64,000 bases of DNA from the NCBI GenBank assembly GCA_963840385.1, contig CAWIYS010000009.1, positions 313,100 through 377,099 of the forward strand, read 5' to 3'. A program made the translations under genes and the position numbers. Below the pieces are notes generated by a model, which worked only from the letters and a program-made list of their open reading frames with translations, searched no databases and had not been told where the DNA came from. Shown in pieces: positions 5,174 to 49,023 of the stretch. Within the stretch, counting starts at the first letter, position 1. The number at the start of each line of letters is the position of its first letter. The stretch comes from an uncultured Chloroflexia bacterium. Lineage in GTDB: Bacteria; Chloroflexota; Dehalococcoidia; DSTF01; JACRBR01.

Positions 5174-7090
5174 ATGAACAGGGGTCTCCCGCCGAGCCTC
5201 CGCGATCTCCTTCGGCTCGTGCCGGTGCTGGTGCTCGATGCGGCGATCGTCCTCGCTGCCTACGCGGCAGCGCTGGCGCTGCGGTTCGACGGCGACGTGC
5301 CCGGCGAGTCCATCCGCTTCTTCGCCGCCGTGTCGTGGTTCATCGCGCTGGCGTACCTCACCGGCAACTTCTTCTTTCGCATCTACCGCACGTCGTGGAA
5401 ATACGCGGGCATCGTCGATGCGCTCAACATCGCGCTGTCCATCGGCGTCGTTTCCATGATCCTGTTCGCGATCAATGCCTTCCTCAGCCCGCGCCACATC
5501 CCGCTGACCGTCAACGTCGTTGCGCCGGCGCTGATGCTGATCGTGATGGGCGGCATCAAGTTCTGGCCGCGGCTCTGGGCGTCGCGCAACCCGTTCGGCG
5601 GCTACGACGCGGGCGTGAAGAACGTACTCATCGTCGGCGCGGGGCACACGGGGCAGCTACTCGCGCGCGAATTCCTGCAGAATCCACGCTGGCAGTACCG
5701 GCCGATCGGATTTGTCGACGACGACCGCCGGCTGCGCGGCGTGCGCATCCATTCGGTGACGGTGCTCGGCGACCGGATGGACATCCCGGAGATCTGCGCG
5801 ACGAAGCAGGTCGACCTCGTCGCCCTCGCCATCCCGTCGGCCGGCGGCGCCGTCATGCGCGAGGTCGTTGGCATCGTCCAGTCGACCCACGTGCCGCTGC
5901 GCACGGTACCCGGCCTGCGCGATCTCGTCCGCAGCGAGTCCGAGGCCGCGCAACTGCGCGAGGTCACCGTAGACGACCTGCTCGGCCGCGAACAGGTTGA
6001 GATCGACGCCGAGATGTGCGCTGCGACGATACGCGGCAAGTCGGTGCTGATCACCGGCGCGGCGGGATACATCGCCGCCGAGCTGGCGCGACAGGTGTTC
6101 GCGTTCGAACCCGCCCGGCTCCACCTTGTCGACGTCAACGAGACGGGCCTCTACGACCTCGAGCGCGACCTCGAGGCCGACGAGGGCGAATCGCGCGTCA
6201 GCATCTGGCTCTGCGACGTGACCGATCCGCTGCAGGTCGACGAAGTGTTCCGGCAGACGCGGCCCGACGTCGTCTTCCACGCGGCGGCCTACAAGCACAT
6301 CCCGGTCATGGAGGACCACCCGGACGCGGCGTTCCGCACGAACGTCGTCGGCACGCTCAACGTCTGCACCGCCGCAAGCGACCACGGCGCCGAGCGTCTG
6401 GTGTTCGTTTCGACGGACAAGGCGGTCAACCCGGACAATGTCTACGGCGCGACGAAGCGGATCGGCGAACTCCTCGTCGGCGCCATCGGAACCGAGAGCA
6501 AGACGACGTTCGCGGCCGTGCGCTTCGGCAACGTCATGGGCAGCCGCGGCAGCGTGGTGCCGCTGTTCCTGCGCCAGATCGAGCGCGGCGGCCCCGTGCT
6601 GCTCACCGATCCGGAGACGACGCGCTACTTCATGTCGGCCGAAGAGGCGGCGAGTCTCGTGATCCAGGCAGCCTCGTTCGCGAAACAGAGCCAGGTCTTC
6701 ATCCTCGACATGGGCGAGAAGGTGCGCATTGCCGACCTCGCCGAGAAGATGATCCGCCTCAAGGGCCACGAGCCCGGGCGCGACATCCAGATCGTCTACA
6801 CCGGCATGCGCCCCGGCGAGAAGCTGCACGAAGAACTCGTCGGCACGTCCGAGAAGCTCCTCAACACGCACCACCCGAAGATCTTCCTTACGCAGGGCCG
6901 GCCGATCGTCACGCGCGACGAGCTCGTGGCGAAGATCGGCGAACTGGCGAACGTACCACCGCGCAACCGTGAGGCGATCGCCGCGCGGCTGCACGCGCTC
7001 GCCCGCATCGACCTCCGCGACACCGGCGGCGACGACGCGCACAACGCGAACGCGCCGGTCGATGAACTCCGCCGCGGCTCCGAGAGCTGA
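5174..7090 (+). CDS. Nucleoside-diphosphate sugar 4,6-dehydratase (CapD/PglF/WbpM family)
   Basis: Four N-terminal TM helices; VLITGAAGYI, VFHAAAYKH, STDKAVNP, VRFGNVMGSRGSV and GMRPGEKLHEEL. Confidence 0.95.
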   Translation: MNRGLPPSLRDLLRLVPVLVLDAAIVLAAYAAALALRFDGDVPGESIRFFAAVSWFIALAYLTGNFFFRIYRTSWKYAGIVDALNIALSIGVVSMILFAINAFLSPRHIPLTVNVVAPALMLIVMGGIKFWPRLWASRNPFGGYDAGVKNVLIVGAGHTGQLLAREFLQNPRWQYRPIGFVDDDRRLRGVRIHSVTVLGDRMDIPEICATKQVDLVALAIPSAGGAVMREVVGIVQSTHVPLRTVPGLRDLVRSESEAAQLREVTVDDLLGREQVEIDAEMCAATIRGKSVLITGAAGYIAAELARQVFAFEPARLHLVDVNETGLYDLERDLEADEGESRVSIWLCDVTDPLQVDEVFRQTRPDVVFHAAAYKHIPVMEDHPDAAFRTNVVGTLNVCTAASDHGAERLVFVSTDKAVNPDNVYGATKRIGELLVGAIGTESKTTFAAVRFGNVMGSRGSVVPLFLRQIERGGPVLLTDPETTRYFMSAEEAASLVIQAASFAKQSQVFILDMGEKVRIADLAEKMIRLKGHEPGRDIQIVYTGMRPGEKLHEELVGTSEKLLNTHHPKIFLTQGRPIVTRDELVAKIGELANVPPRNREAIAARLHALARIDLRDTGGDDAHNANAPVDELRRGSES

Positions 7091-7209: not shown

Positions 7210-8268
7210 ATGAAACTCTTGACCGTCGTCGGCGCGCGACCGCAGTTCATCAAGGCCGCCGCATTCTCGCGCGTCGCTCGACAGCGGCACACCGAGATCC
7301 TTGTGCACACGGGCCAGCACTACGACACGCAGCTGTCCGACATCTTCTTCGACGAGCTGGCGCTGCCCCGGCCCGACTATCACCTCGGCGTCGGCTCCGG
7401 CAGCCACGGCATGCAGACCGCGCAGATGTTGGAACGGATCGAGCCGGTTATCGCGAGCGAGAAGCCGGACCGCCTCGTCATCTACGGCGACACCAACAGC
7501 ACGCTCGCGGGCGCGCTCGCCGCTGCCAAGCTTTCTGTGCCGATCGCGCACGTCGAGGCAGGGCTGCGCAGCTACGTGCGCGAAATGCCGGAAGAAGTGA
7601 ACCGGATCGTCGCCGACCGGCTCTCGACCTACCTCTTCGCGCCGACGAGCACCGCCGTCGACAACCTCGCGCACGAGGGCATCGTCGCCGGCGTCACGCT
7701 GACGGGCGACATCATGTACGACGCGCTGCTCCAGCACGCACCAGTTGCGGCCGAGAAGTCGCGCATCCTCCCCGACCTCGGCCTCACGCCTGGCGGCTAC
7801 GTGCTCGCGACGGTGCATCGCGCGGCGAACACCGACGACCCCGCGCGTCTCGCCGACATCATCGACGCGCTGCAACTGCTGCACGAGCCGGTGATCCTGC
7901 CGATGCACCCGCGCACACGCGCCGCGCTCATGGGCACGGACATCGAGGTAGAGCCGCCGGTGCGGATCATCGAGCCGGTCGGCTACCTGGACATGCTGGC
8001 GCTGGAGCAGGCAGCGCGCATCGTCCTGACCGACTCAGGCGGCGTGCAGAAGGAGGCGTACCTGCTCGGCGTGCCGTGCGTCACGCTGCGCGAAGAGACC
8101 GAGTGGACCGAGACGCTGGAGGGCGGCTGGAACGTGCTCGCCGGCTCGGACACGGAACGTATACTGGCGGCGGCGCGGCGGCCCCGGCCTGAAGGCGTAC
8201 CGGCGCCCGTCTTCGGCAACGGCCACGCCGCGGAGCTGATGGTGGAAGCGCTGGAGCGGAGCGAGTAA
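7210..8268 (+). CDS. wecB: UDP-N-acetylglucosamine 2-epimerase (non-hydrolysing; WecB/WbpI family)
   Basis: VVGARPQFIK, HTGQHYD, GDTNSTLAG, HVEAGLRS and DSGGVQKEA. Confidence 0.9.
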   Translation: MKLLTVVGARPQFIKAAAFSRVARQRHTEILVHTGQHYDTQLSDIFFDELALPRPDYHLGVGSGSHGMQTAQMLERIEPVIASEKPDRLVIYGDTNSTLAGALAAAKLSVPIAHVEAGLRSYVREMPEEVNRIVADRLSTYLFAPTSTAVDNLAHEGIVAGVTLTGDIMYDALLQHAPVAAEKSRILPDLGLTPGGYVLATVHRAANTDDPARLADIIDALQLLHEPVILPMHPRTRAALMGTDIEVEPPVRIIEPVGYLDMLALEQAARIVLTDSGGVQKEAYLLGVPCVTLREETEWTETLEGGWNVLAGSDTERILAAARRPRPEGVPAPVFGNGHAAELMVEALERSE

Positions 8269-32090: not shown

Positions 32091-32324
32091 CCGGCCAGCG
32101 TACCGCCCCCGGCCCGAAGCCGCCTCGTACGGAAGTCAGGACTTCGAGCCACCCGCAATCCCCGAGCCCGGACATCCCGGACAAGCACATGCACATCACG
32201 TTCGACCTCGTCGACTCCGATCGCTTCGTCGATATGCTGCTCGAACGCTACGAGGAGACGACAGGACGCGGCGGCGTAGCAGCAGCGTCGGTGGCACATC
32301 GGACTGTTCTCGAAGCCGGCGGCC

Positions 32325-32349
32325 GCGCGGGCTGAAGAGCCCGCGCTAC
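32325..32349. repeat. REP-like hairpin family A
   Basis: GCGCGGGCTGAAGAGCCCGCGCTAC. Confidence 0.75.
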
Positions 32350-32424
32350 GGCTTGTATGACGGTGCGGTCGTGCCGGCCGGCGTAGATCCTTCGCTTAGC
32401 TCAGGATGACAGGGTAACGACGCG

Positions 32425-32994
32425 CTACGGCGCCTCAGCGCGGGCACGCGCCTTGATGGACTCGATGAACTCCGTTTTGCGGTCGGTGTAGCCGACGTTG
32501 ATGTCGGACGTCGCCGTCAGCGCAGCGTTGAACGCGGCGGCGAGCTGGCGCTTGAGGCGCGCGTACTCGCCGGCGGCGTCCGGGTGCGCGCGCAGGTAGT
32601 CGCGGAACAGCAGGTGCTCGACCCAGAACGGGCTTCCAACCTCAACGGCGTGGAGGTGGTACGCGCGCGCGCCATTGTCGTCCTTGCGGAAGTAGCGACG
32701 GAGCGGCATGCCGGGGCCGGACGACGTGTCGTGCTCGAACGCCTGCACGTACTCGTAACCGATTGACTCCAGCAGCGGGACGAGCGTCGGCGCGTCGTCG
32801 AGCGAGCGCAGGCCCGGCATCATGTCGATGACCGGCTTGGCGGCGAGTCCCGGCACCGACGTGCTGCCGACGTGCTCGACGCGAACGAACGCGCCGACGC
32901 CGCACGTGCGCACGATGAGGTCGCACTCGGCCTCGAAGCGTTGCGGCCAGCCGGGATCGTAGTCGGCGATGACGACGGGGCGGCCGGTGGTCAT
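32425..32994 (-). CDS. GrpB/UPF0157 family nucleotidyltransferase-like protein
   Basis: VVIADYDPGWPQRFE, EHVGSTSVPGLAAKPVID and LLFRDYLRAHP. Confidence 0.9.
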   Translation of the reverse strand: MTTGRPVVIADYDPGWPQRFEAECDLIVRTCGVGAFVRVEHVGSTSVPGLAAKPVIDMMPGLRSLDDAPTLVPLLESIGYEYVQAFEHDTSSGPGMPLRRYFRKDDNGARAYHLHAVEVGSPFWVEHLLFRDYLRAHPDAAGEYARLKRQLAAAFNAALTATSDINVGYTDRKTEFIESIKARARAEAP

Positions 32995-39516: not shown

Positions 39517-39599
39517 CGCGGCGGTCGCTCGGTCACGCCGATGGGGTGCTTGACCCCGGCGGCGGAGTGGCGTAGGACTCGGTCATGGTGAGCAAGCGC

Positions 39600-40332
39600 A
39601 TGGGTTGGTTTGTCGCTATCGAGGGCGGCGAGGGCTCCGGCAAGTCGAGCGTACATGCCGAGCTGGGCGCAACGCTGCGCATGCGCGGCCGCGCCGTCGT
39701 GCTGACGCGCGAGCCGGGCGGCACGCCGCTCGGCGAGCAGATCCGCTCGCTCGTGCTGGCGCAGACGTCGGTCGAGACGGAGGTCGACGGAGCTGCTGCT
39801 GTTCGAGGCGGCGCGCGCGCAGTTGGTCGCGACGGTCATCCGGCCGGCGCTCGCGCGCGGCGAGGTCGTGGTTTGCGACCGCTTCGCCGCGTCGTCGGTG
39901 GCGTACCAGGGGTTCGGGCGCGGCCTCGGCCGGGACCTCGTCGAGCGGGCCAACGCCATCGCGACGGGCGGCCTGCGGCCGGATCTGACGCTGCTTCTCG
40001 ACCTGCCCGCGGCCGACGGCCTCGCGCGGCGCGCGGGCGCCGGCGCGGTCAACCATTTCGATGTCGAGACGCTGGCGTTCCACGAACGCGTGCGCGCCGG
40101 CTACCACGATCTCGCGAACGATGCGCCTGACAGCTGGCGCGTGATCGACGCGTCGCGCCCAATCGATGATGTGGTCGCCGAGTGCGAGGCGGCTGTGCGC
40201 TTCGCTGATCGATTCATAGGCGCGGCGCGCGACTTCATCGACTCGATCACGGTGCGCGATTGGAGCATCATCACGTCCGCCGCAGGATCGCAGGGTGTAC
40301 CCGGTTTGACCGCGCTGGCGCCGGCTCCGTAG
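39600..40332 (+). CDS. tmk: Thymidylate kinase; frameshift near 39790, 3' end uncertain
   Basis: [24 protein letters not shown]...YQG and PDLTLLLD. Confidence 0.92.
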
Positions 40333-42073: not shown

Positions 42074-43549
42074 ATGATGCCGATGTCCGTCACACGACGA
42101 ATCGCCGCCAACCGCACGATGCAGCTGCCGCCGGGCGAGGCGTGGCTCGTTGCGGGCGCGGTCGGCGCCAGCGTGTTCGGCTGCGCCGCGCTGTTCGGGC
42201 ATGCGGCGCTGTTCGCTTCGGTGGCCGCCGGCTCGCTGGCTGCCGGCGTCGCGTTGTACGAGCCGCGCACCCTCGGGCCGCTGCTGGCGCTGGCGCTCCC
42301 GCTCGAGATCTCGAAGCTGGCGTTCCCGTTCCTGGAGACGCGCTCTGAGCTGGGCGGCGGCCTCGGCGCGACGTCGATCGTCGATGCGGGCAGGCTCGTC
42401 GTCGCGCTGGCGTTCGTCGTGTGGGTGGTGCGCCCGACGCGGCCGCGTGCGGACGTGCTGCCGTCGTCGCCGCTGACGCTGCCGCTGGCGCTGCTCTTCG
42501 CCGTCTTCGCGCTCTCGACGCTCTACGCGCTCGACGTCTCGGCCGCGCGCACCGAGTCGATCCGGCTGCTGTTCTCGCTCGGCAGCTTCGCGCTTGTGCC
42601 GTTCTTCGTGCGCGACGCGGCGTCGCTGCGCTGGACGTTGTACGCGTTCGTCTTCAGCGCGGGCGCGCTGGCGATCGCCGGCATCTACCAGCAGGCGACC
42701 GACACGTTCTTCTGGAACCCGGGCCTCGGCCTGTACGGCGAGCGTCGCATCAACGCCACGTTCGCCGACCCGAACCACTTCGCGCGCTTCCTGCTCGAGG
42801 CGATCGTGCTGGCGACGATGCTCTGGCCGTTTGCGCGCCGCCGCATTCGTTTCGGGTTCCTGCTGCCGGCGATCGCGTTGTCGGTGCTGACTCTCGTGTT
42901 CACCGGCTCTCGCGGCGCGTGGGCCGTCGGCGCGATCGCGCTGCCTGTGGCGGTGCTGGCGCTGCCGATCGAGCGCGCGCTGCGACTGCGGCTCCTCGGC
43001 GCAGGCGCGGCGGCGCTCGCGGTCGCGGTGCTGGTCGTCGCGGGCATCTCGCCGTACTTCACGAAGCGGCTCGACACGTTCACCTTCGGCTTCGAGGCGG
43101 CGGGCGCACGGCCGTACCTCGTGAAGGCGGGGCTGAACATGTTCGCCGACCATCCCGTGACAGGCGTGGGCGCCGGCGGCTACCAGCCGTCGTTCGAGAA
43201 CGACTACCTGCGCTACAAGGACCCAAAGATCAAGGCCAACATCACGATCTCGCACACGTCGGTCGTGACGATCATGGCCGAGATGGGGCTGATCGGCATG
43301 ACGGCGGTAGGGTTCCTCGCCGCGCGCTTCGCCACGTACGTGCGCGAGGTGCTGGCCCACGCGCCGCCTGAATTGCGAACTGCTGCGATCGGGCTCACGC
43401 TCGTAGCGGCGATCATCTTCCTTGGCTCGCAGACGGAGGGCCGCTTCCTCGAGGACCCGTACCTGTGGCTCGCGGCCGGACTGATCGTCGCCATCGACGA
43501 GATCGCGCGGCGCGAACGGGCGTCTGTAGACGACGAGGCGAGCACGTGA
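42074..43549 (+). CDS. O-antigen ligase / Wzy_C family membrane protein
   Basis: Ten or more TM helices; RINATFADPNHFA, FTGSRGAW, HPVTGVGAGGY and HTSVVTIMAEMGLIG. Confidence 0.88.
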   Translation: MMPMSVTRRIAANRTMQLPPGEAWLVAGAVGASVFGCAALFGHAALFASVAAGSLAAGVALYEPRTLGPLLALALPLEISKLAFPFLETRSELGGGLGATSIVDAGRLVVALAFVVWVVRPTRPRADVLPSSPLTLPLALLFAVFALSTLYALDVSAARTESIRLLFSLGSFALVPFFVRDAASLRWTLYAFVFSAGALAIAGIYQQATDTFFWNPGLGLYGERRINATFADPNHFARFLLEAIVLATMLWPFARRRIRFGFLLPAIALSVLTLVFTGSRGAWAVGAIALPVAVLALPIERALRLRLLGAGAAALAVAVLVVAGISPYFTKRLDTFTFGFEAAGARPYLVKAGLNMFADHPVTGVGAGGYQPSFENDYLRYKDPKIKANITISHTSVVTIMAEMGLIGMTAVGFLAARFATYVREVLAHAPPELRTAAIGLTLVAAIIFLGSQTEGRFLEDPYLWLAAGLIVAIDEIARRERASVDDEAST

Positions 43550-44604
43550 GGGTCGTGTATCTCGCCGACGCGCCGTACGTGCACACGCGCCGCTGGGTGC
43601 GACACTTCGTCGAGCGCGGCGTCGACGCGCACGTGATCTCGTTCCGGCCGGCGGCGATCGAGGGCGCGACGGTGCACTACGTCGACGGGCTGGAGGCGAT
43701 CGGCAAGGCGCGCTACGTCGTGCACGCCCGGCGCGTTCGCCAACTCGTCATCGACCTGGAGCCGGACATCGTGCACGCGCTGCACCTGACGAGCTACGGC
43801 TTCCTCGCCGGGTTGTCCGGCTTCCGGCGGTCGATCGTCTCGGTATGGGGCACGGACGTGCTGGAGGCGCCCGGCATCTCGCCGTTCCACCGCTGGGTGA
43901 CGAAGCACGCGCTGTCGCGCGCGGGCGCGATCACCGCCACGGGCATGCGCCTCGCCGAGGCGACGCTGCCGTACGCGCCGCGCGGCAAGGCGGTGACCGT
44001 GATCCCGTACGGCGTCGACCTCGACGTCTTCCGGCCGGCGCCGCGCCAGCAGCGCCCGCACCCCGTCATCGGCACCGTCGGCCGCCTGTCGCCCGAGAAG
44101 GGCATCGAGCACCTGCTGCGCGCGGTGGCGCTGTTACGCGACAACGGCGTGACGGTCGACGTCGTGCTGGCGGGCGACGGGCCGTCGCGCGAATCGCTGG
44201 GACGGCTCGCTGTCGAGTTGAAGATCACCGGCCGCGTGCGCTGGCTCGGCGAGGTTGCACACGACGACGTGCCGATCGTGTTGCAGGGGTTCGACATGTT
44301 CGCCATGCCGTCGACGTGGGAAGGGTTCGGCGTCTCCGCGATCGAGGCGAGCGCGATGCAGCTGCCGGTGGTCGCATCGAACATTCACGGCATCCCGGAC
44401 GTCGTCATCGACGACGTGACGGGGCTGCTCGTACCCCCGGCCACCGCGCCGGCGCTCGCCGCCGCGATCGCGCGCCTCGCCACCGACGCGCAGTTGCGCG
44501 AGCGCATGGGCTCGGCCGGCCGGGCGTTCGTCGAGCGGCACTACCGCTGGCGCGATAACGCGCGACTCATGGAGCGACTGTACGACGAGATGCTGGCGAC
44601 CTAG
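43546..44604 (+). CDS. Glycosyltransferase family 4
   Basis: IPYGVD, VGRLSPEKG and PSTWEGFGVSAIEASA (ExF/G...E motif). Confidence 0.93.
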   Translation: MRVVYLADAPYVHTRRWVRHFVERGVDAHVISFRPAAIEGATVHYVDGLEAIGKARYVVHARRVRQLVIDLEPDIVHALHLTSYGFLAGLSGFRRSIVSVWGTDVLEAPGISPFHRWVTKHALSRAGAITATGMRLAEATLPYAPRGKAVTVIPYGVDLDVFRPAPRQQRPHPVIGTVGRLSPEKGIEHLLRAVALLRDNGVTVDVVLAGDGPSRESLGRLAVELKITGRVRWLGEVAHDDVPIVLQGFDMFAMPSTWEGFGVSAIEASAMQLPVVASNIHGIPDVVIDDVTGLLVPPATAPALAAAIARLATDAQLRERMGSAGRAFVERHYRWRDNARLMERLYDEMLAT

Positions 44605-44635
44605 TAGACTTGCTCAGTGACCGGAGGGGACGATA

Positions 44636-45394
44636 GTGGCCGAGCGTTCGTCGATCGAATGGACCGAGGCGACGTGGAATCCCGTCACGGGGTGCACGAA
44701 GATCTCGCCGGGGTGTGCACATTGCTACGCTGAGACATTCGCCGAGCGGTTTCGTGGCGTGCCAGGGCACCCGTACGAACAGGGCTTCGATCTCAGACTA
44801 TGGGAAACACGCCTGGACCTTCCGCTGAAATGGAAACGGCCACGAATGATCTTCGTGAATTCGATGAGCGACCTTTTCCACCCGGGCGTTCCGGATGAAT
44901 TCATCCTGCGAGTGTTCGAGACAATGAACGAGGCCACACACCACACGTTCCAACTCCTCACGAAACGGCCCGAGCGCGCAGCCACGTTATCGGGCCACTT
45001 ACCGTGGACCGATAACATTTGGATGGGGACGAGCGTCGAGAGCCAGCACTTCGCTTGGCGTATCGCTGAATTGCGCCGCACCGCCGCGTCGATTAGGTTT
45101 CTGTCTTGCGAGCCGCTGCTGGGCGAGTTGCGCCTCGAACTAGAGGGCATTCATTGGGTCATCGTGGGCGGCGAATCGGGGCAAGGTGCCCGCCCGATGC
45201 GTGCAGACTGGGCTCGCTCTGCGAGGGAGCAATGCCATCAGCAGGGCGTCGCATTCTTCTTCAAGCAGTGGGGGACGTTCAACGAGTCCGGCGCACGAGT
45301 CGGAAAGCATCGGTCGGGCCGCGCGTTGGATGGCCACACGTGGAACGAATTTCCAACGCTAGCCGCACGTCAAGCGAGATCGAGCGGAAGTTGA
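44636..45394 (+). CDS. DUF5131 / phage Gp37-Gp68 family three-Cys (radical-SAM-like) protein
   Basis: SSIEWTEATWNPVTGCTKISPGCAHCYAE (Cx6CxxC), FVNSMSDLFH, LLTKRPER, WVIVGGESG and FFFKQWG. Confidence 0.92.
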   Translation: MAERSSIEWTEATWNPVTGCTKISPGCAHCYAETFAERFRGVPGHPYEQGFDLRLWETRLDLPLKWKRPRMIFVNSMSDLFHPGVPDEFILRVFETMNEATHHTFQLLTKRPERAATLSGHLPWTDNIWMGTSVESQHFAWRIAELRRTAASIRFLSCEPLLGELRLELEGIHWVIVGGESGQGARPMRADWARSAREQCHQQGVAFFFKQWGTFNESGARVGKHRSGRALDGHTWNEFPTLAARQARSSGS

Positions 45395-46146
45395 CCGCCG
45401 GCTGACGCCTGCCTGTTTACCCAATCCATGATTCTCTTCCCGGCTTCCTTCTTGCTGGCGAAGACGAGGTAGTAAAGGTGCAGGTTCCGACGGGTCTTGA
45501 TAAGCCTGTCTATTTCGGGCGTGTACTCATACCCGAGCCTTCTCAGTTCGCCTATGTAGAGATCTAGCAACCCTCTCGTGGTGTTCCACCGTCTCGCGTC
45601 GAAGAGTGGGCGCCAAGCATCCGTCCCGAAATACTCGGTGACTTTCGGGCTGTGCAGATTCCGCTTGATGCTCATACCGAGGGGAAATGTGATCAGAAGC
45701 TCAGTTCTCCAACGCGAGATAGCCTCGATCGTGCGCCACTTTGGTTCTATGCCTACGGCGTCTAGAAAGACGAAAGTCGGCGATTGCAGCGGCAAGCGTT
45801 GAACGACGCACGGAAGGGCCTCGTTGACATCGCCAATCACCACTTCAGCGCGGCGAGACGCCTCAAGATGCGCGATGGACGACTTCAGTTCGGCAGCGGT
45901 GGTCGGATCGCGTTCGATAAAGTAGAACCGCGAAAACCTCGTGCCGTTCCTCGATGCGGCCTTGAGCGCGATAAGGGGAGACCCATCTACGATGCGCCCG
46001 TCACGAACGCGGTTCGTTCCGGGCCCGGCAAAGGCATCCACGTAAATCGTCTCCATCGCACGCGTGGTTGCCTGCAAGTACCCGGGCAGATAGTCCTCCA
46101 ACACTTTCAGCTTGTCGAGGGTCCAAGGCCCTACAGGTCGGGGCAT
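45370..46146 (-). CDS. tcmP: Three-Cys-motif partner protein TcmP (methyltransferase-like)
   Basis: GPWTLDKLKVLEDYL, YVDAFAGPG, GSPLIAL, FVFLD and LYYLVFASK; adjacent to DUF5131. Confidence 0.85.
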   Translation of the reverse strand: MPRPVGPWTLDKLKVLEDYLPGYLQATTRAMETIYVDAFAGPGTNRVRDGRIVDGSPLIALKAASRNGTRFSRFYFIERDPTTAAELKSSIAHLEASRRAEVVIGDVNEALPCVVQRLPLQSPTFVFLDAVGIEPKWRTIEAISRWRTELLITFPLGMSIKRNLHSPKVTEYFGTDAWRPLFDARRWNTTRGLLDLYIGELRRLGYEYTPEIDRLIKTRRNLHLYYLVFASKKEAGKRIMDWVNRQASAGGQLPLDLA

Positions 46147-46193
46147 ACGTCACTCTTCACGACCTATCTGTAGCATGCTGGGGACTTATCTCG

Positions 46194-47573
46194 CTACGGC
46201 GTCTCGCCGCCGGGGTCGTCCGGGGAGATCGGGTCGGTAAAGGCGCGGCCGGCGTCCGTGAGGTCGCCGAGAAGGTCTTCGCCCGCGGGCTTCTGGCCGG
46301 TCTCAACCCAGTTCACCAGGTCGGCGAAGCCTCGCTCCCGCTCGGCGGCGGTGATGGCGCAGTGGCCGGGGCGACGAATCGCCCGCTGCACGAGCAGGTC
46401 GCCCGCGCCCGCCGCGTCGACGGCGCGCCGGTACTGCTGTTCGATGCTAATCGGCACGAAAAGGTCGCCGGTGCCGTGCAGCGTCAGGAACGGCCGCTGG
46501 ATCTTGCCGGACGGCGCGCCGTACTCCGGATAAAGCGACTTGTCTTCGTACGCCGGGTTCGACTCGACGCGCGGCACCTCGCGATTCAGCTGATCGGAGG
46601 TCACGCCGAGCGCGCTGTCGACTGCATAGATCGTGTCAGCGTTCTGCGCGGCGGCGTTCGAGGCGCCGGGGGCCGAGACGGCCATGAGCAGCAGCGCGAA
46701 GTTCAGCAGGTACTGCATCCGGAAGCCCTCGCGGAAGAACGGACGGGGGCCGCCGGTGAGGTTCTCGATGGCGCTCGCGAACTCCTCGCCCTTCGGTGTG
46801 AGGTTGTCCGCGGTACCGAGCGCGGGGCCGACGTCGCGCTTCAGCGCCCTCGCCAACGTGCCGGCATCCTTGGTGGCGCCGGTCAGGTCCGTGCCGCTGA
46901 AGTAGCCGCCCAGCACGCCCCAGCTGAGGATGTAATCGACGATGCCCTGGCCCGTCAGCGCGCCGCACTCGGCGAAGGCGCCGTCGTACGCTTGCGGGTA
47001 GCGCTCGAGCAACACCGTGGCGACGTTGCCGCCCATTGAGGCACCGTACAGGTACGAGCGGCGCGGGGTGCCGACCTTCGCGGCAAAGACATCATGCAGC
47101 GCTAGGGTGTCGGCGGCGCCAACGCCGGGCGCGTAGCCGTTTTGGCTGAAGCTCGACGCCGCCCACGCGTAGCCGTGCGCGATGAGGTACTCGCGCAGGG
47201 GCGGTGCGTCGACAGTCAGGTTCGGCACGGGGCCGCGGAAGCCGTGCGCGTAGTAGACGACGCTGCCGTTCCAGTTGTCGGGCACCTCGATCTGGTAGCC
47301 GGCGCCGGCGTTCGTGCCGTAGATGGCGCGCGCGCCGGGAAGCGCATCGAACTTCGGGTCGGCGACGGTGTAGTTGCCGGCGACGGGGGTGACGGGCAGC
47401 GTCTTCGGCGTCGCCCAGCCGGAGCGCGCCGCCTCGGGCGTCGTCGCCGCGGCGACGTTGGCAGCTGGCGGCGGGCCATTGCCGCCACACGCCGAAATCA
47501 GCAACGCCATGGCCGCAACGACGATCGTCGCGGCGGTGAGCCGGAAGCCTGGGACGGGACGCCGGAGGGACAT
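46194..47573 (-). CDS. Lipoprotein alpha/beta hydrolase (tannase/DUF6351-like)
   Basis: Lipobox LISAC; YYAHG, YLYGASMGG (GxSxG), TLHGTGD and RRPGHC. It is fused to the upstream gene in the ORF track only because of a frameshift. Confidence 0.8.
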   Translation of the reverse strand: MSLRRPVPGFRLTAATIVVAAMALLISACGGNGPPPAANVAAATTPEAARSGWATPKTLPVTPVAGNYTVADPKFDALPGARAIYGTNAGAGYQIEVPDNWNGSVVYYAHGFRGPVPNLTVDAPPLREYLIAHGYAWAASSFSQNGYAPGVGAADTLALHDVFAAKVGTPRRSYLYGASMGGNVATVLLERYPQAYDGAFAECGALTGQGIVDYILSWGVLGGYFSGTDLTGATKDAGTLARALKRDVGPALGTADNLTPKGEEFASAIENLTGGPRPFFREGFRMQYLLNFALLLMAVSAPGASNAAAQNADTIYAVDSALGVTSDQLNREVPRVESNPAYEDKSLYPEYGAPSGKIQRPFLTLHGTGDLFVPISIEQQYRRAVDAAGAGDLLVQRAIRRPGHCAITAAERERGFADLVNWVETGQKPAGEDLLGDLTDAGRAFTDPISPDDPGGETP

Positions 47574-47623
47574 GGATCCCCAGTCTACCTGAAGGCGCGA
47601 TAGGCCGCGCGTTCGACGAGACG

Positions 47624-49023
47624 TCAGCCGCCGAAGTGGGCGATGGCGGCGTCGAGCTGCGGGTCGACGCCGTTGACGATGTCGGCCTGGGTGCGCGTCA
47701 CGCGCTCGTCGGGGACGACGCCGACGCCGTTGAGAAGGCTGTTGGTCACGGGGCCGAGGTTGACGTGCGTCGTCACCGCCATCGATGAGCCGTCGCCGAG
47801 GTCGCCGATGTCGGTGTAACCGACGCAGCCGTTCGACTTCGCGCCGATCACGTACGGCGACGCCGTACTCCTGCAGCGCCGCCGCGAACGCCTCGGCGAC
47901 GGAGCCGGTGCCATTGTTGGTGAGCAGGACGATCGGCCGCACGACGGGCATCGTGTCACCGCTCGCGCGCGTCTCGTCGATCTTGCCGTCGCGGTTGCGG
48001 GTGCGCGTCGTGACGCCGTCCTTGACGAAGAGGCTGATCGCGTCGCCGTCGAACTGGCCGCCGGGGTCGTCGCGAAGGTCAATGATCCACTTCGTCACGC
48101 CCTGCGCATCGAACGACGTCAGTGCGTCGCGCAGCGGACCGTGGATGCCCGTCAGGACGAAGTTCCGCACGCGCACGTAGCCGATGCCGTTGCCGAGCAC
48201 GCGCGGCTCGACGTTCTGCGGGATGACGCGCGCACGGACGATCGCCAGCTCGATCGGCGCTGACTCGCCGGGACGGCGGAGCTGGAGCCGCACGGTCGTG
48301 CCCTCCGTACCGTTGATCAGCTCGAACGCGGACGCCGGGCCGAGATTCGACGCGTCGGCGTCGTCGATCTGGACGATCCGGTCGCCGATGCGCACACCCG
48401 CATGGTCGGCGGGGCCGCCGGCGATGACGCCGGTGACGAGCGGCGGCGGCCCGCCGAGCTCGACGCCGATGCCAACGGAGCCCTGGCCCTCGCGCGTCTC
48501 GATCAACGTGTCACTGGCGACGGGGCTGAGGAAGAACGTGTGGCAGTCGTGCAGGCTCTGCGCCATCGTGCGCAGCGCGGCGTAGCGCAGCTTCGTCGCG
48601 TCGCCCTTCGCAGCGAGCGGCACGTAGGCATCGCGGAAGGCCGCAAAGTCGGCCGTCGCGGTCGCCTGTGAACGCCGGCCGCGCCGGCACGGCGATGCCC
48701 TCGGCGGCGGCCTCGGCTGCCGCGCCCGCCCAGGCCTCGGCGAGCACGTCGTTCGGCGTCAGCGGGTCGATGTACTCGTCGAGGAGCCGGTCGTACGCCG
48801 TCTTGATGATGGCGATGCCGCCGTCCTTCAGCAGGACGGCCACATCCGGCGTGGGCGTCGCCGTGGGGCCGGCGGGCGTGGCCGTGGCCGGGATGGGCGT
48901 GACGGTCGCCGTCTCGGTCGACCGCGCCGGCGTGGACGTGCATGCGCTCGCACCGAGGAGGAGCGCGATAATGACGGCGAGCAGGAAGGCGGGGGCGGCG
49001 CGCGCCCTCGGCGTGTGGTTCAT
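47624..49023 (-). CDS. S41 (CtpA-like) carboxyl-terminal protease with PDZ domain, lipoprotein; frameshifts near 48665 and 47860
   Basis: Lipobox GASAC; PDZ (GPADHAGVRIGDRI), IIDLRDDPGG, NGTGSVAEAFA and GVGVVPD. Confidence 0.88.

Follow-up and report, generated by a model that had tools for sequence, protein, structure and literature searches.

The window analysed here is a stretch of 64,000 nucleotides from an uncultured Chloroflexia bacterium (contig CAWIYS010000009.1), in which positions 44605-46170 hold two intact open reading frames (ORFs) that converge on one another. The first (44636-45394, plus strand) encodes DUF5131, a 252-residue radical-S-adenosylmethionine (SAM)-like three-Cys enzyme of the phage Gp37/Gp68 family, and the second (45370-46146, minus strand) encodes TcmP, the three-Cys-motif partner protein, with 258 residues and a class-I methyltransferase fold. 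As described in an earlier note made from the letters of this DNA alone, the two genes share their 3' ends over 25 bp (45370-45394 by the ORF coordinates), and this overlap codes the non-conserved tail of DUF5131 together with the final residues of the TcmP tail. DUF5131 begins at a GTG codon and has a good ribosome-binding site, the Shine-Dalgarno-like GGAGGGGA that can be read 5 nt 5' of the start (44623-44630, plus strand). Flanking the pair are a host GT4 glycosyltransferase gene (43465-44604, plus strand; Pfam Glycos_transf_1, E 3e-42), whose stop lies 31 bp 5' of the DUF5131 start on the same strand, and a host esterase-like gene (46194-47573, minus strand; weak Pfam Tannase, S9 and hydrolase matches), whose stop lies 47 bp 5' of the TcmP start on the same strand. 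The cassette is placed between the 3' ends of these two convergent host genes, each of which is a possible source of read-through transcription.

Judged by profile scores, the pair is TIGR04474 plus PF07505, which PADLOC holds as the phage-defence candidates (PDCs) PDC-M41/M30. DUF5131 matches PF07505 with 345.6 bits (E 1.9e-103, cut-off 28.9) over profile positions 2-243 of 243 and also matches phrog_2045, while TcmP matches TIGR04474 with 159.9 bits over residues 7-241 (cut-off 53). The PADLOC models PDC-M41A (TcmP, E 7.6e-26) and PDC-M41B (DUF5131, E 8.8e-107) recognise the adjacent genes, and the PDC-M30 models match as well. TcmP is encoded beside a PF07505 three-Cys protein, as the definition of TIGR04474 requires, and the same pairing is found in the 39 loci analysed. 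These scores bear out the identities proposed in the earlier note, and the Cx6CxxC and DAFAGPG motifs that it named are invariant in their families. The family is very widespread in bacteria and phages, with more than 8000 close homologues scored. Compared with the family at large, the window copy, with both of its adjacent genes far over the family cut-offs and with Cys triad and motif I conserved, differs in nothing essential; it is convergent and 3'-overlapping rather than an operon, is without a promoter or LexA box of its own and lies outside any defence system. In the searchable literature on DUF5131, TcmP, PDC-M41/M30, TIGR04471/4474 and IPR011101, no functional study was found, again in agreement with that note; passing mentions concern TcmP beside Hna in S. 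meliloti and in prophages resembling phiLM21, and the number of PDC-M30 systems in P. aeruginosa. The window pair is an added member of a known family lacking an assigned function.

In DUF5131, C20, C27 and C30 (Cx6CxxC; codons at 44693-44725, plus strand), the presumed [4Fe-4S] ligands, are invariant across 40 homologues, and so among the homologues is GGESG, a GGE-type SAM motif; the protein departs from 2 of 126 highly conserved columns, which is inside the range of its homologues. The spacing of the cluster motif is Cx6CxxC, and the canonical radical-SAM CxxxCxxC was not found. RadicalSAM.org/SFLD nonetheless list DUF5131 as a radical-SAM subgroup (PMC9477430), in megacluster 5, to which spore photoproduct lyase also belongs. 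Against a cut-off of 355, DUF5131 scores 81.2 bits on TIGR04471 (radical SAM mobile pair protein A), by which it is related to that family but not a member. The best PDB fold for the AlphaFold2 model of DUF5131 is spore photoproduct lyase, weakly matched (E 0.016; template modelling (TM) score 0.38-0.50; 13-14% identity), and further weak matches include TIM barrels and radical-SAM RNA modifiers such as MiaB. The likeness to spore photoproduct lyase (PDB 4FHC, 4FHG, 4K9R) thus consists of the top solved-structure match, a neighbouring SFLD subgroup and the GGE-type motif, whereas DUF5131 has Cx6CxxC in place of CxxxCxxC, is smaller by some 90 residues and relies on a second protein as its partner.

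SAM-binding motifs I-III are conserved in that partner: DAFAGPG, an acidic position that follows strand 2 (FIE/D), and GDVN. The first of these, motif I (residues 37-43; 46018-46038, minus strand), is the presumed SAM-binding loop, and D37, F39, A40, G41, P42 and G43 are invariant across 57 homologues. Motif IV reads (FL)D-x-x-G-I-E-P-x-W in the family and DAVGIEPKW in the window protein, with no (D/N/S)PP(Y/F/W) found, and because it is not of the DPPY type we do not file TcmP as an N6-methyladenine (m6A) or other adenine methyltransferase. The description of TcmP in the earlier note as SAM-methyltransferase-like therefore holds for its fold and for probable SAM binding, and only for these, since the DPPY-type catalytic motif is missing. 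The AlphaFold2 model of TcmP (mean predicted local distance difference test (pLDDT) 91.4) finds RlmJ as its best PDB match in Foldseek (E 9e-9, TM 0.55-0.60), followed by further nucleic-acid methyltransferases including Trm1, RsmD-like proteins and TYW2. With RlmJ, the 23S rRNA m6A2030 methyltransferase (DUF519; PDB 4BLU, 6QDX, 7P9I), TcmP has in common a class-I methyltransferase fold of the Rossmann type carrying a helical insertion, the conserved motif I and an acidic motif II; it differs in its 13-15% identity with no sequence-level match, in its motif IV, which is not DPPY, and in always being paired with a radical-SAM-like protein. A BFVD fold search with TcmP returned generic methyltransferases only, and PDB searches with single sequences and profiles returned no meaningful sequence relative of either protein; the family is without a solved structure.

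These folds invite the idea of an RNA (rRNA or tRNA) modification pair, in which TcmP would recognise an RNA site and DUF5131 would modify it. The best structural matches of TcmP (RlmJ, Trm1, RsmD-like, TYW2), its weak Pfam Cons_hypoth95 match and the presence of MiaB among the weak DUF5131 fold matches all point in this direction. A patchy and mobile distribution, carriage in the lysogeny modules of phages and SOS control, all described below for this family, are however not traits of housekeeping RNA modifiers, and the GMT-like winged helix-turn-helix domain added on some longer TcmPs suggests DNA binding. We therefore consider this explanation quite improbable.

The pair lies in a lower-GC islet with deviant codons, as the earlier note had pointed out. 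Its GC content is 0.55-0.62 against approximately 0.70 in the flanks, its two genes have a GC content at third codon positions (GC3) of 0.71 and 0.69 against 0.90-0.94 in five neighbouring genes, and it is the lowest-GC 1.5 kb of the window, 4.3 standard deviations under the mean. We then compared the locus with relatives, using two congeners (G001 and G002) for the slot itself and searching 41 genomes for DUF5131. Both flanking genes are kept in the two same-genus genomes at 77-82% DNA identity (80-82% for the GT4 gene, 77-79% for the esterase-like gene), and blastn homology ends at 44596 and resumes at 46193, which delimits the variable insert, the acquired cassette, as the 1596 bp from 44597 to 46192. 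In the congeners the slot is filled with 1198 bp and 1710 bp of unrelated cargo, including a PEMT/ICMT-like membrane methyltransferase in G001 (L020 2805-3596) and a GNAT acetyltransferase in G002 (L021 2464-3075). Where the earlier note proposed to look for an empty site in relatives, both congeners are without the pair in the slot and have other cargo in its place. Because the congeners hold different cargo, 44597-46192 is one alternative among three or more that occupy this hotspot, which is placed at the end of an envelope-polysaccharide gene cluster.

The distribution of DUF5131 is likewise patchy, with 13 of the 41 relatives carrying it. It was not found in G001 (95% complete), and in G002 it stands at another locus (L022 4928-5665), solo without TcmP and with P-II/amt genes directly after it. 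Two metagenome contigs (L067 and L068) have DUF5131 and TcmP in this same abhydrolase...P-II/amt context, and since they keep the pair there, G002 appears to have lost TcmP. The ORF 3' of the G002 DUF5131 gene was considered as a hidden TcmP and ruled out by hhalign; it overlaps the P-II gene on the opposite strand. Vertical inheritance at the locus is ruled out by the other cargo in the congeners' slot and by the patchiness of DUF5131, and horizontal acquisition of the pair, which the earlier note had read from codon usage, is well supported by the variable slot, the patchy distribution and the deviant GC3. As that note had also observed, no mobility gene marks the insert; nor does a tRNA or an Rfam non-coding RNA match, and a search for flanking direct repeats or terminal inverted repeats as insertion scars gave only short, chance-level matches.

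The two genes of the cassette have different histories. The closest TcmP homologues are 50-60% identical and come mostly from Chloroflexi and Dehalococcoidia metagenomes, and in every one of their contexts that was read the gene is convergent with a DUF5131 gene, amid unrelated housekeeping neighbours. In the TcmP tree, the window protein and its relatives form a clade of nine rows (support 100/99) whose genes are convergent in 9/9 loci, the 3' ends overlapping by up to 50 bp or lying at most 6 bp apart; further Chloroflexota pairs are arranged as operons, with either gene first. The window DUF5131 belongs to a different company. Its clade (support 95/92 and 98/97) joins it to enzymes 71-76% identical from the same taxonomic family and from metagenome contigs, and the TcmPs accompanying these are 26-36% identical to the window TcmP and belong to three other TcmP clades, two of which are longer forms. 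Conversely, the enzymes paired with the TcmPs closest to that of the window share only 58-68% identity with the window DUF5131. Approximately unbiased (AU) tests reject keeping together the DUF5131s of the convergent TcmP clade (p = 9.7e-5) as well as the TcmPs of the window DUF5131 clade (p = 8e-42); congruence is thus rejected both ways, and the TcmP partner is therefore exchangeable. In several relatives, DUF5131 has a host-like GC3 of 0.87-0.90 and its TcmP one of 0.65-0.69. A stable enzyme with a swappable, AT-richer partner would fit a role of TcmP as the specificity or recognition component.

Compact two-gene units that lack a mobility gene, have convergent abutting or overlapping 3' ends, keep their genes under separate control and include a variable recognition component are well known from the selfish cassettes of Type II restriction-modification (RM) and toxin-antitoxin systems. 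DUF5131-TcmP resembles convergent cassettes of this kind in all these respects and differs in having no nuclease or recognisable toxin domain. The likeness is one of architecture alone. Convergence with overlapping 3' ends would allow separate control here too, for example of TcmP with a prophage repressor or host operon and of DUF5131 by LexA.

The same arrangement is found in two Gordonia phages. In Gordonia phage Fairfaxidum, a TcmP-like 'methyltransferase' gene comes after the immunity repressor gene on one strand, and DUF5131 converges with it in an 11-bp overlap, the integrase gene adjoining; Gordonia phage BaxterFox has the same layout with the DUF5131 frame unannotated. The convergent overlapping layout is thereby a stable, clade-wide and cross-phylum feature that is seen in actinophages too. 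We note that in BaxterFox (NC_031226.1) the full-length DUF5131 frame is 32200-32940 on the plus strand, 49% identical to the window protein, and that the small ORFs 40 and 41 on the opposite strand are annotated instead. Overall, DUF5131 is present in 171 phage records and a recognisable TcmP in 9, counts obtained with differing E-value limits and for proteins of which TcmP diverges the faster.

The idea of the earlier note that the pair modifies nucleic acid or acts against phages is a reasonable one that is already catalogued in PADLOC. PDCs are guilt-by-embedding predictions, made because their homologues occur within BREX, DISARM or Type I RM loci. The paper that predicted them confirmed seven other systems and put forward 145 candidates, the PDC systems included (bioRxiv 10.1101/2024.01.29.577857). 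An anti-phage defence system, in which the pair would restrict or abort infection, for instance through modification of, or damage to, the nucleic acid of the phage, is suggested by the match of both proteins to PDC-M41 and PDC-M30, by the exchange of an AT-richer variable partner on a conserved enzyme, as is seen for specificity subunits in conflict systems, by the position behind the repressor, within the lysogeny module, in temperate Gordonia phages, and by the TcmP gene beside Hna in S. meliloti. Set against this, a PDC is a candidate only and the confirmed systems of the source paper are others; the LexA control described below fits a DNA-damage function at least equally; and phages with DUF5131 are many whereas those with TcmP are few, with the reservations on these counts given above. 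The neighbours in the window, moreover, are envelope and housekeeping genes (a Wzy-like gene, the GT4 glycosyltransferase, the esterase, an S41 peptidase, PlsY, kinases and SAM decarboxylase), so the defence-island context that the earlier note had suggested looking for does not apply at this locus. On balance, defence seems possible, if somewhat unlikely, and it would be compatible with the mechanism that we favour below.

The regulation of related cassettes suggests a link to DNA damage. In three sister cassettes (L023, L026 and L063), LexA boxes of the GAAC-N4-GTTC type lie in the promoters of both convergent genes (in L023 at approximately 5960-6000 and 7505-7520, with L026 and L063 likewise). 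The tcmP boxes of the three (GAACGACCGTTC, GAACAAAAGTTC and GAATGCCTGTTC) are placed between good -35 and -10 hexamers, while AGAACAGGCGTGC, AGAACAGGTGTAC and AGCACAGGCGTTC are found at the DUF5131 start, and the same type of box is present in the host's own lexA and recA promoters. Since a perfect 8-of-8 box is expected, by calculation, approximately 0.0015 times per 100-nt region, the two perfect boxes found in 20 regions are not due to chance. The pair of Mycobacterium tuberculosis genes Rv2734/Rv2735c, between miaB and recX, provides a possible parallel. For Rv2735c, a TcmP domain is annotated in the orthologue from bacillus Calmette-Guérin (BCG) (PMC7387457), and the gene is transcribed together with recA-recX by read-through (PMC3062782); Rv2734, Rv2735c, recX and recA make up one mitomycin-C-responsive cluster (PMC5057432). 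Because their names imply opposite strands, the two genes would be convergent, so that the likeness comprises the TcmP domain, read-through co-transcription and implied convergence, with Rv2734 a putative DUF5131. That copy is wired to an SOS operon, whereas the window copy lies behind esterase and glycosyltransferase genes.

These links raise the alternative of SOS-induced repair of DNA lesions, with TcmP flipping out the damaged base and DUF5131 reversing or processing the lesion in the manner of spore photoproduct lyase. It would account for that lyase being both the closest solved fold and the adjoining SFLD subgroup, for the LexA boxes in both promoters of the sister cassettes, and for the ties of Rv2734/Rv2735c to recA-recX through co-transcription and the mitomycin C response. 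Repair enzymes, however, are usually inherited vertically with conserved partners, while this cassette is mobile and patchily distributed and its TcmP is exchanged; the window copy is without an SOS operator; and SOS control is typical of prophage and mobile-element functions too. We accordingly regard a dedicated repair function as unlikely.

How the window copy would be expressed is a separate matter. No sigma-70-like promoter or terminator was found in 44300-46500, no GAAC-N4-GTTC-like box occurs in the 31-bp and 47-bp upstream spacers, one-mismatch matches to the box being confined to coding regions, and RNA structure at the overlap is not significant against shuffles (z 0.68 and -0.56). 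As a host gene running in the same direction ends just 5' of each of the two, transcription is most economically explained by read-through, and the window copy is probably expressed from the GT4 and esterase genes in this way. The 'self-contained module' of the earlier note is thus a compact and intact pair, but one with no recognisable promoter or terminator of its own.

The same features could mark the window copy as a silent passenger, a promoter-less remnant that is unexpressed or non-functional. With neither promoter-like site, terminator nor LexA box, and with spacers of just 31 and 47 bp, it has little upstream sequence of its own; among 89 highly conserved columns its TcmP departs from 6, P247 and D248 of the overlap region being two of these, although this is inside the family range; and same-genus G002 has apparently already lost tcmP beside DUF5131. 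Yet both frames are intact and all invariant residues are kept despite frameshifts nearby in tmk and the S41 peptidase gene, DUF5131 has its good ribosome-binding site, and M. tuberculosis offers a precedent for the expression of TcmP by read-through from an operon upstream. We find a silent passenger hard to credit.

Taken together, the locus holds an intact, horizontally acquired DUF5131-TcmP cassette, and we lean, by a modest measure, towards a mechanism in which TcmP is a recognition subunit and DUF5131 performs radical chemistry on nucleic acid, in a setting of DNA damage or phage conflict. With its RlmJ-like fold, intact SAM-binding motifs and lack of DPPY, TcmP would serve as an exchangeable recognition subunit that binds a site in nucleic acid, DNA being the likeliest, and offers DUF5131 a base or lesion there. 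DUF5131, predicted to be a radical enzyme with [4Fe-4S] and SAM and closest among solved folds to the DNA-repair enzyme spore photoproduct lyase, would then carry out the radical chemistry. The LexA operators of the sister cassettes, the place behind prophage repressors and the embedding in defence systems suggest that the family acts in DNA damage or phage-host conflict, and in the window copy read-through from the GT4 and esterase genes would yield converging transcripts. A more specific version is that the pair represents a new class of damage- or infection-linked DNA-processing system, in which an exchangeable TcmP that has lost methyl transfer selects the DNA site or lesion and a minimal Cx6CxxC radical-SAM enzyme performs a hitherto undescribed radical reaction there, by modification, lesion reversal or strand damage; this we put forward tentatively, as somewhat likelier to be wrong than right.

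Several observations weigh against the favoured mechanism. The AlphaFold2 model of DUF5131 has a pLDDT of 83 with the cluster loop modelled at low confidence, and it gave no PDB fold match at E <= 0.001. The nearest TcmP folds are RNA methyltransferases (RlmJ, Trm1), which makes RNA possible as the target in place of DNA. With regard to the SOS link, L023, L026 and L063 form one subclade, so that their LexA boxes count as a single origin within the sample, and the window copy has no such box in its spacers. A defence-island reading of the locus is ruled out by its envelope-polysaccharide and housekeeping neighbours. Finally, the searchable literature holds no biochemical or genetic test of any DUF5131-TcmP member, and substrate, chemistry and biological role are consequently all inferred.

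Learning what a minimal radical-SAM enzyme does together with an interchangeable partner shaped like a methyltransferase could bring to light a new modification of DNA, a new repair reaction or a new mechanism of immunity. To this the window copy contributes a clean case of the cassette in a hotspot where congeners hold other cargo, and phylogenetic evidence that it is the partner, not the enzyme, that has been exchanged. As an experimental entry it is poor, belonging to an uncultured high-GC genome and having neither an SOS operator nor a promoter of its own; actinophage lysogens, the mycobacterial pair and the cassettes with LexA boxes are better points at which to start.

Some further features of the neighbourhood were also noted. 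The thymidylate kinase gene (39585-40332) is split into two overlapping frames by a frameshift or indel error, with 39585-40130 covering PF02223 positions 1-53 and 39823-40332 covering positions 70-184. An 809-aa ORF at 46194-48623 (minus strand) is a read-through chimera that runs from the S41 peptidase through an Arg-rich out-of-frame stretch into the esterase gene; it holds the PDZ domain and the N-terminal part of S41, the C-terminal part of which is read from a different frame (ORF 47624-48082). The presence of two frameshifts in a space of 10 kb, in an assembly of 17 contigs with 70% marker completeness, suggests assembly indel errors. The GT4 gene at 43465-44604 also matches PF20706, 'GT4 in conflict systems', with 45 bits and a sub-threshold rank, and is probably an envelope gene, since ordinary GT4 families score far higher and the gene is conserved in the congeners.

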